Source of the DNA: Candidatus Poribacteria bacterium
Lineage (GTDB): Bacteria; Poribacteria; WGA-4E; PCPOR2b
DNA length: 64,000 nt
Direction of reading: 5' to 3'
NCBI GenBank assembly: GCA_965218095.1
Contig: OZ244587.1
Coordinates: forward strand, 5,504,001-5,568,000
The position numbers and the translations under genes were made by a program. This document shows positions 20,487-58,182 of the stretch, piece by piece. Numbering within the stretch: the first letter of the stretch is position 1; each line of letters starts with the position of its first letter. Under the pieces are notes generated by a model. It worked only from the letters and a program-made list of their open reading frames with translations, ran no database searches and was not told the origin of the DNA.

Positions 20487-20495
20487 CTGTTCAGG

Positions 20496-20630
20496 ATGGA
20501 TACGATGGATACGATGGATACGATGGATACGATGGATACGATGGATACGATGGATACGATGGATACGATGGATACGATGGATACGATGGATACGATGGAT
20601 ACGATGGATACGATGGATACGATGGATACT
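20496..20630 (+). repeat. Tandem repeat (ATGGATACG) x15
   Basis: 135 bp of 9-mers, 14 perfect and the last ending ACT; encodes (MDT)15. Confidence 0.97.
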
Positions 20631-22112
20631 TGTACATTTCCAAAGCTGTTACGTGAAAAATACCTGAAATGGGGCGACGGCAAAGTTGCCCTCCGAGAAA
20701 AGGACTATGGTCTGTGGAATATCGTGACCTGGAAGGGGTATTATGAGCATGTCAAATACTTTGCGCTTGGGCTGAAATCCCTCGGCTTTGAAAGAGGTGA
20801 GCATATCTCAATCATCGGGAATAACGAACCGGAGTGGGTTTATGCCGAACTCGCTGTTCAATCGCTGGGAGGCGTTGTGATAGGGATCTACCAGGATTCA
20901 ACCCCAGCCGAAGTCAAGTATGTTGCGGAAAAATCGGATTCCGTGTATATCGTCGCCGAAGATCAGGAGCAGGTGGATAAGCTTCTTGAGATCAAAGATG
21001 AAATTCCACCCCTGAGAAAAGTGGTGTATTGGGATGCCAAAGGAATGAGAAATTACGAGGATGTGATACTGATCTGCTTTCAGGCGGTTCAAGATTTTGG
21101 TAGAGCTTACGAGAAATCCCACCCAGGGCTTTTTGAAGCGGAGATTGACAAAGGAACGCCCGGTGATACTGCCCTGATTCTCGCAACCTCCGGAACGACG
21201 AGCCTTCCGAAACTTGCTATGCTCAGTTACAGGAATATGCTGAAGATGGCTGAGAATCTGCTTGCTGAGATCGATCCGATGGATGCGACAGACGAGTTTG
21301 TCTCATGCCTTCCACTCGCCTGGATTGGTGAGCAGATGATAACCATTTCGGGCGCAATGCGCCTCGGATTTACGGTCAATTTTCCCGAAGAGCCTACGAC
21401 AGTTCAGGAGGATATCCGGGAAATTGCGCCACATGTCATGTTTTCTCCACCACGGATTTGGGAGGGAATCCTTTCCACAATTCAGGTCAAAATTGAGGAT
21501 GCCAGTTGGCTCAAGCGGCTCGTTTACAGAACGTTTATGCCGGTTGGCTATAAGACCGCGGATCTAAGGTTTGGAAATCAGCAACCAACCCTCAAATGGA
21601 AGATGCTCTATAAGCTGGGATATTTTGCGCTTTTCAGGGCGATCAAAGACAGAATTGGACTCTCACGAATTAGAAATGCGTACACGGGTGGGGCGGCGCT
21701 AGGCCCTGATGTTTTCAGGTTTTATCATGCGATTGGGGTGAATCTGAAGCAGATCTATGGTCAAACAGAGATTTCCGGTATCTCCGTCGTGCACCGAGGT
21801 GATGATATAAAATTTGAAACGGTTGGTCATCCGATACCTGAAACGGAGGTAAAGATCTCTGCGGAAGGGGAGATCCTCTCTAAGTCACCCTGTGTGTTTC
21901 AGGGGTATTACAAGGACAGTGAGGCAACATTAACGGCGCTGAAAGATGGGTGGTTGTGTTCGGGGGACGCCGGATACATTGATGATGCCGGTCATCTTGT
22001 AGTCATCGACCGTATGAAGGATGTCATGCAGATCTCGGATGGAAACCTCTTCTCACCGCAGTTTATCGAAAACAAGCTAAAATTTAGTCCGTATGTTAAG
22101 GAAGCCGTTGTT
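20496..22112 (+). pseudogene. Long-chain fatty acid-CoA ligase, truncated by a group II intron
   Basis: TSGTTSLPK, YGQTE, SGDAG, IENKLKFSPYVKEAVV then intron GTGCG; C-terminal domain absent. Confidence 0.88.
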
Positions 22113-22768
22113 GTGCGCTTTTAAGTAACTAAATGCAATGATGGTGAGATTCCATCTACAGTAGCTTACAACTGCAAGCCTAACCTTAACTGCGTTGCTT
22201 GAAAAGGCAGGGTGGGAAGCAAAGGGAAACGGCGCATTCCTGAGAGGGAAAGTAGACCCTCGAAAGTGGAACGTCAGGCTGAAGATGATAAGGTTAAAAC
22301 GAAAGTTGAACTGATGTTTTAAGCCCCGTTACTTCCAAACAGGTTAATCTACAAGTTAAAGCCTGTAACTAATAAAGTACAAGCATAGGGTTATGTCTCG
22401 CTTTTACATAACCAAAGGTGATATGCTAACAACTCATATCACTAGTAAGCCATTGCTTCGGGGTAAAATCAGAACCTAAGTCATCTATAAATTACATTTA
22501 GTAAGATTAAAAGAGTCCCTAAGTCATCATTAAGATGATATGGGAGAGGAAGGCAGCAAAAGCATTTATGCAAAGCCTGCCTAGTGTCAACGTACAGAAA
22601 TGTTTCATGAACAGATTAAGGGAAAATGAGAGCAAATCAAGTCCCTGTTACATACTTGGCAACTCGTCCCCATGTTCTGAATGAAACAAAGTAAAGTAAA
22701 GTGGACCCATTGTCGAGGCCAAAATACAGGAAAAATAAGTAAGATATTTGAGATAAACTGACACTGCT

Positions 22769-23518
22769 TTAGCTCAGATAGACCTCAGCCGGGGTAGCAT
22801 AATTTAGACTCTGGTGAGGTCGCTGTTGATTATAGAAACGGATATATTGAGTTAATCCATCAAACAGGGCTTGCCCTGTTTGGTAAAGTTTGTGATAAAC
22901 ATCTTCATACTTGACGCTTCGCCAAAACCGCTCAATGTAAATGTTGTCAATGGCTCTCCCCACGCTGTCCATACTCATAGCAATACCATCGGCTTCGACC
23001 GTATCGGTGAAAGCATTGGCTGTAAACTGGACACCTTGGTCAGTATTGAAGATGATGGGGGTTGCCCCAGATAATGCGTGATGCAAAGCGTCGAGACAGA
23101 ACTGCCCTGATAGACTATTGGATAACTCCCAAGTGATGACGTAACGACTATACCAGTCGAGTATCGCCACCAGATACATAAACCCTTTATCCATCGGGAT
23201 ATAGGTAATGTCAGCCGACCAGACCTCATTGGCAGCGGTCACCTCATAGTCCCGTAATAGGTATGGGTAAATCCGATGCTCGCTGTTGATGGCTGAGGGT
23301 TTGGGATAAATCGCTTCTATACCCATCAAACGCATCAGTCGCTGGATGCGTTTGCGGTTCACACGGTAGCCAAGCCGCTTAAGATGTTGTGTCATTCGAC
23401 GACTCCCATAGAAAGGGGTTTGCAGATAGTGCTCATCTATTTGTCTCATCAGATGCAGATTGTCTGCTGACTCTGTAGCCGGTTGACAGTAGAGGGTTGA
23501 CCGGGAAAAACCGAGCAA
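22769..23518 (-). CDS. IS3-family transposase OrfB (DDE integrase core)
   Basis: WSADITY, NTDQGVQF, DNIYIERFWRSVKYE. Confidence 0.9.
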   Translation of the reverse strand: MLGFSRSTLYCQPATESADNLHLMRQIDEHYLQTPFYGSRRMTQHLKRLGYRVNRKRIQRLMRLMGIEAIYPKPSAINSEHRIYPYLLRDYEVTAANEVWSADITYIPMDKGFMYLVAILDWYSRYVITWELSNSLSGQFCLDALHHALSGATPIIFNTDQGVQFTANAFTDTVEADGIAMSMDSVGRAIDNIYIERFWRSVKYEDVYHKLYQTGQALFDGLTQYIRFYNQQRPHQSLNYATPAEVYLS

Positions 23519-23579
23519 TTCACACTGACGACGGATACTCAGTTTCAGGTGGTCGGGTTCAACGAGTGCCCGTCTCTGT

Positions 23580-23870
23580 TCAGCGGCTTGAGGCAGCTTT
23601 TTTTTTCAACCAGTCGAGTTCCATATTCAACCGCCCCATTTGCTCATACAGGCTCGACTCCCTGTCATTTTGCTCACGCTGTCGCTGGGTCGGGTTGGTA
23701 GCGAAAATATCGCTACCTTGTTCAAGCAACTGTTTCTTCCATTGGCTGATTTGGCTTGGGTGCAACTGATGCTCGCTTGCCAATTGGTTGATAGTTTTAT
23801 CGGGCTTGATGGCTTCAACGGCTATTTGAAACTTGAATTTGGCAGTATGCCGAATCCGTTTGGTTGACAT
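23580..23870 (-). CDS. IS3-family transposase OrfA
   Basis: HTH domain ending LDWLKKK at the frameshift window. Confidence 0.88.
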   Translation of the reverse strand: MSTKRIRHTAKFKFQIAVEAIKPDKTINQLASEHQLHPSQISQWKKQLLEQGSDIFATNPTQRQREQNDRESSLYEQMGRLNMELDWLKKKAASSR

Positions 23871-24121
23871 ATTCAGACCTCCATTGGTGGACGGGAGTTA
23901 GACGTTATTTCTTACTTAACTCCTGGCCCGAATATTGGGGACCATTATAAAGTATGGCTGAGATTAACTACTAAGGATAAAAAAAATAATCTAGTCAGTC
24001 TAAAGGTTATTATCCTAAATAGTAGATAATCGGTAATTGACAGGGCAAGCCGTGTGCGGTGAAAGTCGCACGCACGGTTTAGATGGGGGGGAAATTCCGT
24101 AAGGAATCTACCTATCCATAC

Positions 24122-25152
24122 GGATTGGGAAGGGTATAAAAATCAAACTGATCTGGTCGGACTATCAGTACAAAATCCCTCAAGCGATCTCAACCTATGC
24201 CAAACTGGTTAAGCGGGATAAGGTTGTCGCCATCCTGGGCTGGGGGACGGGAGACTCCGAGGCGCTGAAGACAAAAATTGTCAAAGACAAGATCCCTTAC
24301 ATTTCAGCGTCATTCTCGCAACACCTTGTCTGGCCCCCAAAATGGAACTTCCTTCCCATCAGTACATACGCCGACTAGGTGAGAATGATGATGAAATATA
24401 TCAAAGACGAGTGGGACGATCCCAGGCCGCCGAGAATGGTGCTCATCTACAACAACACGGGATATGGTCGCACCCCCGTCGAGCCTGCCAAGGCGTATGC
24501 AAAGGAGATTGGGATCGAGCTTGTCAGTACGGAGATCGTAGGGCTGCAAGACCTTGAGGCAACTTCACAATTGCTGAGAATTAAGGAGAAGGGAGCGGAC
24601 TGGGTCTTCATTCAGGAAACGTATACAGCGACAAGTACGATTCTCAAAGATGCAAAGAAACTCGGCTTAAACGACGTAATTTTCACAGGAAACTTTTGGG
24701 GGACAGGAAAGAAACTCGTGGAACTCGCAGGGGGTGCCGCGGAAGGGTACCTAGGGATTATGCCGTTTGCGATTTGGAGTGACGACAATGAAGGCGTTCG
24801 ATTTGCCAAGATGCTTAACGCGAAATATCATCCCGACATAAAGTACTGAGAACCTCAATATATGACGGGCATCGTGAACGCCATGATTATGGTTCATGCC
24901 ACCGAATTTGCCTTGAAAAACGCGGGCGGGATTCCGAAAAAGGTTAAGGGAACAGAAGTATTTAAGGCACTTGAAAGCATGCAAAATTTTGATACCAAAG
25001 GCTTGACCACGCCTGTTAGTTACAACTCGAATGAGCGTCGGGGCGCAAAGGGCTGTAAGATTGTGACGATTAAGAACGGGGAACTTTCCGCAGTAACAGA
25101 CTTTCTTGATGCCCCTCCGGTCCCCGAAAAAGAGAAGCGTGGGGAAGAGTGA
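24122..25152 (+). pseudogene. ABC transporter substrate-binding protein (LivK-like), 5'-truncated with two stops
   Basis: GIKIKLIWSDYQYKIPQAI...GWGTGDSEAL; TAG at 24376 and TGA at 24847 in one frame; N-terminus absent. Confidence 0.82.
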
Positions 25153-56106: not shown

Positions 56107-58182
56107 GGTTCTGTTGACATTTCAAGGGAGCCATATAAGAGTGGCGACAAAGCTGAGAAATCCAAAATAACGGACAGCTAACTTCTCGAACCGAGAGAAG
56201 ATGCGGCGATACCATTTTATCTTGTTAATGAAACATTCAACCCGATGTCTCTCTTTGTATAAGTGTTTGTCGTACGTTCTTTGGTCAACACGATGACTTT
56301 TTGGCGGTATCACTGCAATCGCTCCATTCGCCTTGATAACCGCGATAAAATTGTCGGAGTCATATCCCTTGTCTCCAATCACATACTCGCTTTTATATCC
56401 AAGTATCAACGCTTCTGCTTCCGCTATGTCGTTTCTTTGACCGGGCGTCAGATGAATTCTTAGTGGATTACCCAGGCCGTCAACGGTGATGTGATTTTTT
56501 GTACTGAATCCCCCGCGAGAGCAGCCTAACGCTTGGTTTTCAGTGCCACCCTTTTTTTTAAGGCACCCGTCGCACACGGGTGCGCTCGAATGATTGTACT
56601 GTCCACAATAAGCGACTCGATATCGGGGTCGGCGGCGAAGTGGTGGTGCATCTGTGTGAAGACCCCTTTGTCGCACCACCGAGCAAACCGCTTATAGAGG
56701 GTGTTCGATTTACCATAGGTGTCTGGCAGAAGTCTCCATTGAGCACCGCTACGGGTCGCCCAGAGAACAGCTTCGATAAAGCGGCGTGTTGTCGCTTCGT
56801 TGCCAACATAGATGTTGGGACAAGTTAGAAGAAACGAGTATATCTTTTTCCATTGGTCATCGGGTAAGGTTTATAATGGTCCCCAATATTCGGGCCAGGA
56901 GTTAAGTAAGAAATAACGTCTAACTCCCGTCCACCAATGGAGGTCTGAATATGTCAACCAAACGGATTCGGCATACTGCCAAATTCAAGTTTCAAATAGC
57001 CGTTGAAGCCATCAAGCCCGATAAAACTATCAACCAATTGGCAAGCGAGCATCAGTTGCACCCAAGCCAAATCAGCCAATGGAAGAAACAGTTGCTTGAA
57101 CAAGGTAGCGATATTTTCGCTACCAACCCGACCCAGCGACAGCGTGAGCAAAATGACAGGGAGTCGAGCCTGTATGAGCAAATGGGGCGGTTGAATATGG
57201 AACTCGACTGGTTGAAAAAAAAAGCTGCCTCAAGCCGCTGAACAGAGACGGGCACTCGTTGAACCCGACCACCTGAAACTGAGTATCCGTCGTCAGTGTG
57301 AATTACTCGGTTTTTCCCGGTCAACCCTCTACTGTCAACCGGCTACAGAGTCAGCAGACAATCTGCATCTGATGAGATAAATAGATGAGCAGTATCTGCA
57401 AACCCCTTTCTATGGGAGTCGTCGAATGACACAACATCTTAAGCGGCTTGGCTACCGTGTGAACCGCAAACGCATCCAGCGACTGATGCGTTTGATGGGT
57501 ATAGAAGCGATTTATCCCAAACCCTCAGCCATCAACAGCGAGCATCGGATTTACCCATACCTATTACGGGACTATGAGGTGACCGCTGCCAATGAGGTCT
57601 GGTCGGCTGACATTACCTATATCCCGATGGATAAAGGGTTTATGTATCTGGTGGCGATACTCGACTGGTATAGTCGTTACGTCATCACTTGGGAGTTATC
57701 CAATAGTCTATCAGGGCAGTTCTGTCTCGACGCTTTGCATCACGCATTATCTGGGGCAACCCCCATCATCTTCAATACTGACCAAGGTGTCCAGTTTACA
57801 GCCAATGCTTTCACCGATACGGTCGAAGCCGCTGATATTGCTATGAGTATGGACAGCGTGGGGAGAGCCATTGACAACATTTACATTGAGCGGTTTTGGC
57901 GAAGCGTCAAGTATGAAGATGTTTATCACAAACTTTACCAAACAGGGCAAGCCCTGTTTGATGGATTAACTCAATATATCCGTTTCTATAATCAACAGCG
58001 ACCTCACCAGAGTCTAAATTATGCTACCCCGGCTGAGGTCTATCTGAGCTAAAGCAGTGTCAGTTTATCTCAAATATCTTACTTATTTTTCCTGTATTTT
58101 GGCCTCGACAATGGGTCCACTTTAGTTATTGGCATCATTCTTCTATTATGCCACAACCTTATACTCAAATGTCAACAGAACC
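56107..58182 (-). mobile_element. IS5-family insertion sequence (copy 3), interrupted by IS3
   Basis: 2076 = 820 + 1253 + 3 bp; both IRs present; TA flanks. Confidence 0.92.
56872..58124 (+). mobile_element. IS3-family insertion sequence (copy 2), orfB with nonsense mutation
   Basis: 1253 bp, TSD GTT; near-identical to 22697-23949; CAA>TAA at 57378. Confidence 0.93.

Follow-up and report, generated by a model that had tools for sequence, protein, structure and literature searches.

The closest described systems to the locus reported here are the introns of Thermosynechococcus elongatus, in which group IIB introns without an open reading frame (ORF), the TeI3 introns, move with the help of TeI4 proteins supplied in trans (Mohr, Ghanem and Lambowitz 2010, PMC2882425). 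As to how such introns find their target, the sections of PMC8643678 cited here give a IIB rule, by which exon-binding site 2 (EBS2) and the base EBS2a both pair with the exon in the manner seen in the family described below, and a IIA arrangement, in which a hairpin loop holds EBS2 and the base adjoining EBS1 pairs with the 3’ exon. Here we analyse an element in a 64,000-nucleotide stretch of a Candidatus Poribacteria genome (assembly GCA_965218095.1, contig OZ244587.1, positions 5,504,001 to 5,568,000), referred to below as the window. The element occupies positions 22113-24121 of the plus strand and is made up of a 753-nt group IIB intron, a 1253-bp insertion sequence (IS) and a 3-bp duplication. 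It is very probably a non-autonomous, ORF-less bacterial group IIB intron of the chloroplast-like reverse transcriptase (RT) lineage, now likely reduced to an immobile fossil. Coordinates are those of the window unless the genome is named; the genome itself is one contig of 6,350,489 bases, 93.9% complete by marker genes.

The element is a genuine group II intron. In an Rfam scan of the whole window, Intron_gpII (RF00029; domains V and VI) matched at 24045-24121 with 64 bits (gathering score 40, E 2.9e-10), covering all 77 positions of the model, and was the only match above threshold. The intron starts with GTGCGC at 22113, in agreement with the GUGYG consensus, and its 3’ end reads ...CCTATCCATAC, the final ...ATAC finishing at 24121. 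In the RF00029 alignment, domain V spans 34 nt (24047-24080), with the catalytic AGC triad at 24047-24049 and a GAAA tetraloop at 24060-24063, while domain VI (24083-24121) contains the bulged branch-point A at 24114, seven bases from the end, and places the 3’ splice site after 24121. A first-pass annotation, made from the sequence alone, had called these boundaries as well as the GTGCGC start, the AGC triad, the GAAA loop and the AC end; all are present where it placed them, and the Rfam search that it proposed bears them out.

The rest of the ribozyme could be followed by comparison. A consensus structure computed with RNAalifold from six ORF-less copies displays the usual group II plan, i.e. 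IA and IB hairpins, an IC arm with a GAAA loop, and domains V and VI. The IS-free window intron is able to form 218 of the 222 consensus pairs, a figure that expresses consistency and not independent proof since the consensus was built from the same sequences, and 91 pairs show compensatory change among the six copies. Domain I extends from 22113 to 22514 (its 3’ limit is approximate) and two conserved hairpins at 22515-22581 are provisionally assigned to domains II and III. The alpha loop GCTTAC of the IB hairpin (22164-22169) is complementary to alpha’ GTAAGC (22445-22450), with matching changes in two copies, i4426 and i268, as read from the alignment; the beta loop GTAGA in IC2 (22252-22256) is likewise complementary to the beta’ loop TCTAC in ID (22348-22352). 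Judged by its sequence, the ribozyme core still looks intact.

We then turned to the pairings between intron and exon, which fix both the insertion site and the subgroup. The 5’ exon ends with GTTGTT (intron-binding site 1, IBS1; 22107-22112, exon positions -6 to -1), preceded by IBS2, GGAAG (22100-22104, -13 to -9), and by the IBS2a base, A22099 (-14). IBS1 pairs at six of six positions, all Watson-Crick and anchored at exon -1, with AACAAC at 22428-22433. This EBS1, recognised as such in the first pass, lies in the loop CTAACAACT of a hairpin, H2 (GGTGATATG/CATATCACT, 22417-22443), found at the position of D1d3. Immediately upstream is a second hairpin, H1 (GGTTATGT/ACATAACC, loop CTCGCTTTT, 22389-22413), at the position of D1d2b. 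Pairing was scored as the longest run of pairs from the last exon base, with G-U counted as half, and with a threshold of 5.5 that was chosen after seeing the data; on this scale EBS1 and IBS1 reached at least 5.5 in 10 of 13 copies of the own genome, compared with 4 of 154 non-self pairings.

EBS2 was located by covariation. A single-stranded stretch in an internal loop of subdomain ID, TTA-CTTCC-AAA (22329-22339), changes from copy to copy together with exon positions -13 to -9. In the window copy, CTTCC (EBS2, 22332-22336) forms five of five Watson-Crick pairs with these positions and T22330 (EBS2a) pairs with the A at -14. In fixed register, five EBS2 pairs form in 15 of 22 copies across the family against 20 of 462 non-self combinations, and EBS2a and -14 form a Watson-Crick pair in 19 of 22 against 158 of 462, all four pair types being present; three more copies are not in these counts, having failed the motif filter by which the stretch was found. 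The intron and exon sequences accordingly change as couples: CTTCC with GGAAG in the window copy, CCTTA with TAAGG in i2599 and i600, CCTTT with AAAGG in i469 and i1600, GGATA with TATCC in i4703, and TTGGG with CCCAA or CAAGG with CCTTG in relatives from other genomes. A search over all alignment columns for the one that best covaries with the first base of the 3’ exon yielded a position in ID, window 22466, which pairs with that base in 11 of 13 copies (10 Watson-Crick), the exceptions being the window copy and i4516; A22466 is thus the candidate EBS3. The base 5’ of the window EBS1 is a T facing an exon G, and the delta pairing of IIA introns is not seen.

The protein that goes with the family points in the same direction. 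An intact 582-aa relative of it matches the maturase T.el4h over its full length (6.8e-88) and LtrA in the RT fingers only (5e-45), and T.el4h is the nearest of the solved structures. The broken protein of the own genome is 57% identical to this relative over 335 residues, and both the sibling intron that encodes it and its relatives carry RVT_N, RVT_1, GIIM and HNH, i.e. a IIB-lineage protein with an endonuclease (HNH) domain. Because EBS2 with its EBS2a lies in an internal loop, because an EBS3-like column exists and because the protein is of IIB type, we file the element as group IIB from these sequence features, at the level of IIB as a whole and not of IIB1 or IIB2.

The IS lies in the domain IV region, at 22697-23949 on the minus strand, and belongs to the IS3 family (NCBIfam transpos_IS3, 3.1e-81). 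It holds two overlapping minus-strand ORFs with Pfam HTH_Tnp_1, HTH_21 and rve matches, orfA (23870-23580) and orfB (reaching down to 22769), and an A9 run (T9 on the plus strand, ~23598-23608) where the two overlap. The DDE transposase encoded by orfA and orfB, the slippery run, at which frameshifting is predicted, and a 3-bp target duplication are those of an IS3 element. Its ends were fixed by comparing copies, as an inverted-repeat scan did not pick up the imperfect terminal repeats: BLAST of 22690-23960 returned about ten near-identical copies in the own genome that have exactly 22697-23949 in common. All ten copies examined start with TAAAGTGGACCC and end with GGGACCATTATA, and seven of the ten are flanked by 3-bp direct repeats, which at the window intron are AAG (22694-22696 and 23950-23952). 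A second copy of the same element is present in the window at 56870-58127, in the opposite orientation, 99.5% identical and with an AAC duplication.

Removal of the IS and of one AAG leaves 753 nt, the length and duplication that the first pass had proposed. Besides the IS ORFs, the window intron contains no ORF of at least 90 aa and no RT, GIIM or TIGR04416 match, in line with the absence of an RT ORF claimed there. A 765-nt sibling (88% identity overall, ~90% in the first 582 nt) remains colinear through the point of IS insertion and has no ORF either. A contig assembled from an RNA library joins 22692 directly to 23950; its right side differs by a single substitution and a single additional base, and its sequence is that of an IS-free, near-identical intron. 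Since the sibling is colinear and the RNA contig free of the IS, the ORF-less state is older than the IS; and since the duplication is intact and IS-free forms exist, the IS entered after the intron had inserted. When the window copy was aligned locally with the RT-bearing copy described below in search of ORF remnants in domain IV, only a weak similarity near the ORF start was seen.

The window intron is one of a family. The own genome yielded 23 domain V matches above the Rfam threshold and, with the IS-free sequence as query, 13 elements with both ends recognisable, so that the genome search suggested in the first pass did return further copies. Five of them are uninterrupted and contain no ORF of at least 90 aa (765 nt at genome position 2598356-2599120, and 775, 747, 715 and 803 nt); several contain IS4/IS5-type transposase ORFs, one is interrupted elsewhere by the same IS3 element, without a duplication, and one has only an HNH remnant left. 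A single copy bears an RT gene with RVT_N, RVT_1, GIIM and HNH (598220-600671) and is 84% identical to the window intron over its first 438 nt. With no RT or maturase ORF of its own and with five further ORF-less copies at different sites with matching EBS and IBS, the window intron has the hallmarks of a non-autonomous element. As for the RT-bearing parent expected by the first pass, a relative that carries the gene does exist, but this gene, the sole locus of the own genome for the intron-encoded protein, is broken: an in-frame TGA interrupts it, and near 599495 the profile match shifts to another frame. Searches of the genome with RVT_1, TIGR04416 and GIIM gave no other intron-type RT, the only matches being 598976-600042 and a Drt4 gene. 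The latter encodes a Drt4-type antiviral RT of 507 aa (genome 1094736-1096259; L074 1237-2760; NCBIfam Drt4 1.9e-151, PADLOC Drt4 2.9e-161), adjoins a TPR-repeat ORF; no other intact RT was found in the genome. The copy cut by the IS3 element (genome 1927321-1927835) has the same kind of target as the 765-nt sibling; the IS (1926068-1927320) sits at a different internal position than in the window, there is no target duplication and the DNA beyond the IS is not intron, an arrangement that suggests an IS-associated deletion or recombination between two IS copies.

Beyond the own genome, ORF-less copies of 745-753 nt are present in two related genomes. With the first 584 nt as query, matches at E <= 1e-8 were obtained in 23 of 151 genomes of the same order, the own genome counted, and 18 of 28 genomes of the same family matched, the own genome not counted. 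A group II RT match over the curated cut-off was found in 9 of 29 genomes of the family; the own genome is one of the 29 and has none. A pattern scan for the conserved ID motif gave 20 loci, and for six of them a 5’ end could be placed inside the distance range expected from the motif; four of the six come from Poribacteria records with this architecture, all of types already seen. The strict filter let through none of 15 regions taken from 5’ of RT genes in relatives; BLAST placed intron 5’ parts in five of the 15, two of which were usable, adding two copies. A literature search for group II introns in Poribacteria returned nothing relevant. The RNA runs that contain the stretch are labelled sponge metagenome.

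The intron interrupts an acyl-CoA ligase (AMP-binding) gene (20496-22112, plus strand; Pfam AMP-binding 1.3e-64), of which only the part 5’ of the insertion is left. Its reading frame ends ...KEAVVV and is without ~139 C-terminal codons: orthologues of 632 aa, 76-80% identical, read ...EAVVFGKERQF... where the window gene reads ...EAVVV and then runs into the intron, and the frame after the 3’ splice site is GLGRV-stop. Searched for by tblastn, with orthologue and with paralogue C-termini as queries, the missing part did not turn up in the genome; both sets retrieved only a distant paralogue at ~5.95 Mb. With the ligase C-terminus gone from the genome, the locus is best regarded as a fossil. 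What follows the intron is not a continuation of the ligase but a 5’-truncated Peripla_BP_6 pseudogene (24124-24849, plus strand) with an in-frame TAG at 24376-24378, the Pfam matches to which begin only at profile position 39 and fall in two separate ORFs. The deletion ends within a few bases of the 3’ splice site, which recombination between two direct intron copies would explain, although this is a guess. In a sliding-window check for chimerism, the one place where identity to the closest sibling fell was the variable tip of the domain IV region. One RNA contig (21924-22154) spans the unspliced 5’ junction. With no maturase and no 3’ exon left to rejoin, the copy is today most likely a fossil, immobile and lodged in a gene that is itself dead. 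At the other end of the ligase ORF, its start consists of a perfect 9-bp tandem repeat of GATGGATAC (20495-20629; 15.0 copies, 100% matches) that reads MDT repeatedly; orthologues start MDTYTFPKLL, and the first three ligase codons thus appear to have been tandemly amplified. The Peripla_BP_6 pseudogene, together with the short junction-spanning ORFs at most intron sites of the own genome, suggests widespread gene decay.

The most likely history can be assembled from these elements. Intron RNA, spliced and bound by the RT/maturase of an ORF-bearing relative, would have reverse-spliced into the sense strand of the ligase gene, between a Val and a Gly codon, guided by EBS1/IBS1, EBS2/IBS2 and EBS2a/-14 (6 + 5 + 1 pairs), and complementary DNA would have been synthesised by the RT/maturase encoded in that other copy. 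Later, the IS3-family element would have entered the domain IV region, where autonomous copies hold their RT gene, the DNA 3’ of the intron would have been deleted and the genome’s only intron RT gene would have decayed. The fit between EBS and exon is as expected for reverse splicing with an RT supplied in trans. The insertion step is read from the pairings and from the pathway known in T. elongatus; the loss of the downstream DNA and the broken RT gene are observed as they now stand. We infer the order of events, the supply in trans and the present inactivity. The proposal made in the first pass, of a non-autonomous ribozyme that retrohomed with a maturase provided in trans, agrees with the ORF-less state, with the EBS fit and with the existence of an RT-bearing relative. 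Mobility or function today is unlikely, as the only intron RT gene of the genome is broken and the host gene truncated.

Most copies of the family carry the two neighbouring hairpins just 5’ of alpha’, H1 and then H2. In copies that could be parsed automatically, stems are 7-12 bp long and loops mostly 9 nt (range 7-11); the stem sequences of H1 and H2 are very different between copies yet still paired. We collected 19 two-hairpin copies at distinct sites, 11 from the own genome and 8 from five related genomes, and scored each loop against the exon end. At a score of at least 5.5 the exon end pairs with the H2 loop in nine copies, the window copy included, with the H1 loop in seven, with neither in three and with both in none. 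In the automatically located subset (n = 12), H1 reached the threshold in five copies and H2 in five; the same loops set against the exons of other copies reached it in 4 of 286 (H1) and 2 of 286 (H2) combinations, and shuffled loops set against their own exon in 219 of 12,000 (H1) and 423 of 12,000 (H2). Copies i3602 and i4516 are 90% identical over the first 1032 nt, differ at about four of 230 bases in the ID segment and have both hairpin loops in common, identical between the two; the exon end of i3602 pairs with H2 over seven positions, that of i4516 with H1 over seven. Both loop uses also occur in copies of related genomes with open RT genes of 582-598 aa. Inspected by eye, the unused hairpin showed no consistent pairing with the 3’ exon or with upstream exon positions.

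Mutually exclusive pairing of this kind, by H1 in seven and by H2 in nine of 19 copies, suggests two interchangeable EBS1 loops. That either of the tandem ID hairpin loops, which share one format (stem of 8-11 bp and, in most copies, a loop of 9 nt), can serve as EBS1 in this intron family of the own genome and several related sponge-associated ones is a proposal to which, from the sequence comparisons, we give an even chance. On such a proposal, H2 would be the loop in use in the window copy and H1, whose anchored pairing with its own exon end scores 0.5 and which the first pass had taken for EBS2, would be the spare; such a spare loop may be the relic of an earlier target, or it may be available for probing others. 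If true, the same ribozyme recognises two unrelated exon ends of 6-7 nt, as in i3602 and i4516, which would give the family a natural way to change targets and would help its non-autonomous copies to spread. Group II introns are programmable (“targetrons”) because they recognise their targets by base pairing, and two alternative EBS1 loops would show how specificity can be switched without losing the old target, and suggest dual-target designs. Full-text searches, which were not exhaustive, found no description of a double EBS1 or second guide sequence in group II introns, and to our knowledge a built-in second guide sequence has not been described for them.

Several observations weigh against reading the element as an ORF-less IIB intron mobilised in trans and now fossil, and are gathered here. 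In a permissive scan, the group-II-D1D4-7 model matched at 22157-22247 with 31.2 bits, just below its gathering score of 34; the check on domains I to IV advised in the first pass was therefore answered by a match, but by a subthreshold one in this copy, and three related introns from other genomes passed at 36.5-38.4 bits. The limits of domains II to IV are provisional. The candidate EBS3, A22466, is mismatched with the first base of the 3’ exon, G24122; as the codon of the intact ligase gene also starts with G, either a mismatch was tolerated at insertion or EBS3 has been misassigned, and for the same reason the A/G mismatch alone is no sign that the 3’ flank is foreign. At 93.9% completeness, an RT may reside on an unassembled replicon. 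Finally, no 22112/24122 exon-exon joint was present among the contigs of four metatranscriptome runs over 21300-24700, contigs being unable to show absence, strand or level.

Other accounts of the element have to explain the same data. The first-pass annotation saw a IIA-like layout, with GCTTTT in the H1 loop (22400-22405) as EBS2 pairing with GGAAGC. This complementarity is real (four Watson-Crick and two G-U pairs) and EBS2 of IIA introns does lie in a hairpin loop (PMC8643678, in the sections cited), but it is the internal-loop stretch at 22332-22336 that covaries with -13 to -9, as GGATA/TATCC in i4703 and TTGGG/CCCAA in relatives illustrate. The H1 loops of other copies, read manually, do not pair with -13 to -8, and in seven copies H1 pairs instead with -7 to -1; moreover, the EBS3-type column, away from EBS1, follows the 3’ exon and the protein is of the IIB T.el4h type over LtrA. 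A IIA-like intron is consequently very unlikely, and the IIB assignment is retained. We regard as extremely unlikely that the intron still works in a live gene, with splicing restoring the ligase mRNA: its core is intact in sequence, it lies in the sense orientation and an IS in domain IV would not necessarily destroy the fold, yet translation would stop at GLGRV where orthologues go on for ~139 aa, a part found nowhere in the genome. The idea that the intron once had its own RT gene and lost it through the IS insertion or an associated deletion, which the first pass had named as fatal to its proposal, has a starting point in the IS sitting where the ORF lies in the RT-bearing copy. Its probability is close to nil, as the AAG duplication is intact, five uninterrupted siblings and the IS-free RNA contig are colinear over the insertion point without an ORF, and other genera of the family also have ORF-less introns of this length.

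The two-loop proposal has a more serious competitor, namely that only one hairpin ever works as EBS1 and that the matches of the other arise by chance or by gene conversion after insertion. The threshold was, as mentioned above, picked after seeing the data, copies within one genome are related and can exchange sequence, and in the canonical IIB intron ai5gamma the D1d2b hairpin, at the position of H1, has no known exon-binding role in the sections of PMC3919574 cited here. On the other hand, each loop matches its own exon in five of the 12 parsed copies, to be set against the few non-self and shuffled matches given above, none of the 19 copies pairs through both loops, so that one use excludes the other, identical loops in i3602 and i4516 fit their sites through H2 and through H1, respectively, with seven pairs each, and both uses recur in RT-bearing copies of other genomes. 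A single working loop is possible but rather unlikely, and interchangeable loops are the simplest reading.

Further observations concern the targets of the family. A single-hairpin subfamily (genome 4426125-4426839; also L070, L084, L096, L101 and L103) is always found after ...AAGTGCG, so that the junction reads GTGCG|GTGCG, with the same target type in at least four genomes; extra copies in one related genome (G058) are of this subfamily at one repeated target and have no bearing on the two-hairpin question. In the 5’ exons of many family copies, IBS2 is Shine-Dalgarno-like (AAGGA, AGGAG, GGAGG) and the insertion point is at or within a few bases of ATG, with cases such as AAGGAGAAGATT|ATG and GGAGGAGACTTGA|TG, the latter with the intron splitting the start codon (genome 1598536, 5863431 and 468785-469559; L048, L050, L077 and L111). 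The intron lineage may thus favour translation-initiation regions. The ORFs 3’ of many such insertions in the own genome are short or decayed. In a related genome (G056; one contig, 98% complete), a ~745-nt ORF-less member at locus L048 stands directly after the ATG of an open frame of at least 330 codons and is preceded by AAGGAG, and no group II RT match was found in that genome at E <= 1e-20. With no detectable maturase and an intron after the ATG, this gene would need maturase-independent splicing or a host factor, which raises the question of how such introns are spliced.

Taken alone, the window element is an ordinary, well-preserved ORF-less IIB intron that was later interrupted by an IS and is now left behind in a gene undergoing decay. 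The family to which it belongs adds a new bacterial lineage to the few genomes with multiplied non-autonomous group II introns, here with a driver RT that has since died, and the alternate use of two loops is its point of interest, possibly a new one. In the sections of PMC2882425 cited here, the TeI3/TeI4 introns are, like this family, of IIB type and numerous in the genome, mostly as ORF-less derivatives; their EBS have diverged to fit different sites, their RT comes from ORF-containing relatives and one copy is interrupted by an IS (TeI4g::ISEL2f). Unlike them, the family described here looks stranded, the single RT gene of its genome being broken, several of its copies have been hit by IS elements and its host seems to live in association with sponges and to have many pseudogenes; these sections, for their part, contain no description of exon ends alternating between two hairpin loops. 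With EcI5-type IIB1/IIB2 introns (Monachello et al. 2021, PMC8643678, same sections as above) the family shares a Watson-Crick covarying pair between -14 and the base two positions 5’ of EBS2, and its candidate single-base EBS3 in ID would be a further point in common; for the ORF-less organellar introns treated there EBS2a lacks statistical support, whereas it holds in the ORF-less bacterial copies (19 of 22). The Lactococcus intron Ll.LtrB (IIA) resembles the window intron in its two neighbouring ID hairpin loops, its 5’ GUGCG and its canonical domains V and VI, but the hairpin-loop EBS2 and the EBS1-adjacent pairing of the 3’ exon of IIA introns (PMC8643678) contradict the covariation in this family, and LtrA is a much weaker protein match. 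Finally, the yeast IIB1 intron ai5gamma, as described in the cited sections of PMC3919574, has the same succession of elements, i.e. the EBS2 loop, the D1d2a (beta’) hairpin, D1d2b and D1d3 (EBS1) by alpha’, an order that puts H1 at the D1d2b position and H2 at that of the EBS1 hairpin; unlike in ai5gamma, the hairpin at the D1d2b position has in this family the same 9-nt loop format as the EBS1 hairpin and, in 7 of 19 copies, is the one that matches the exon end.

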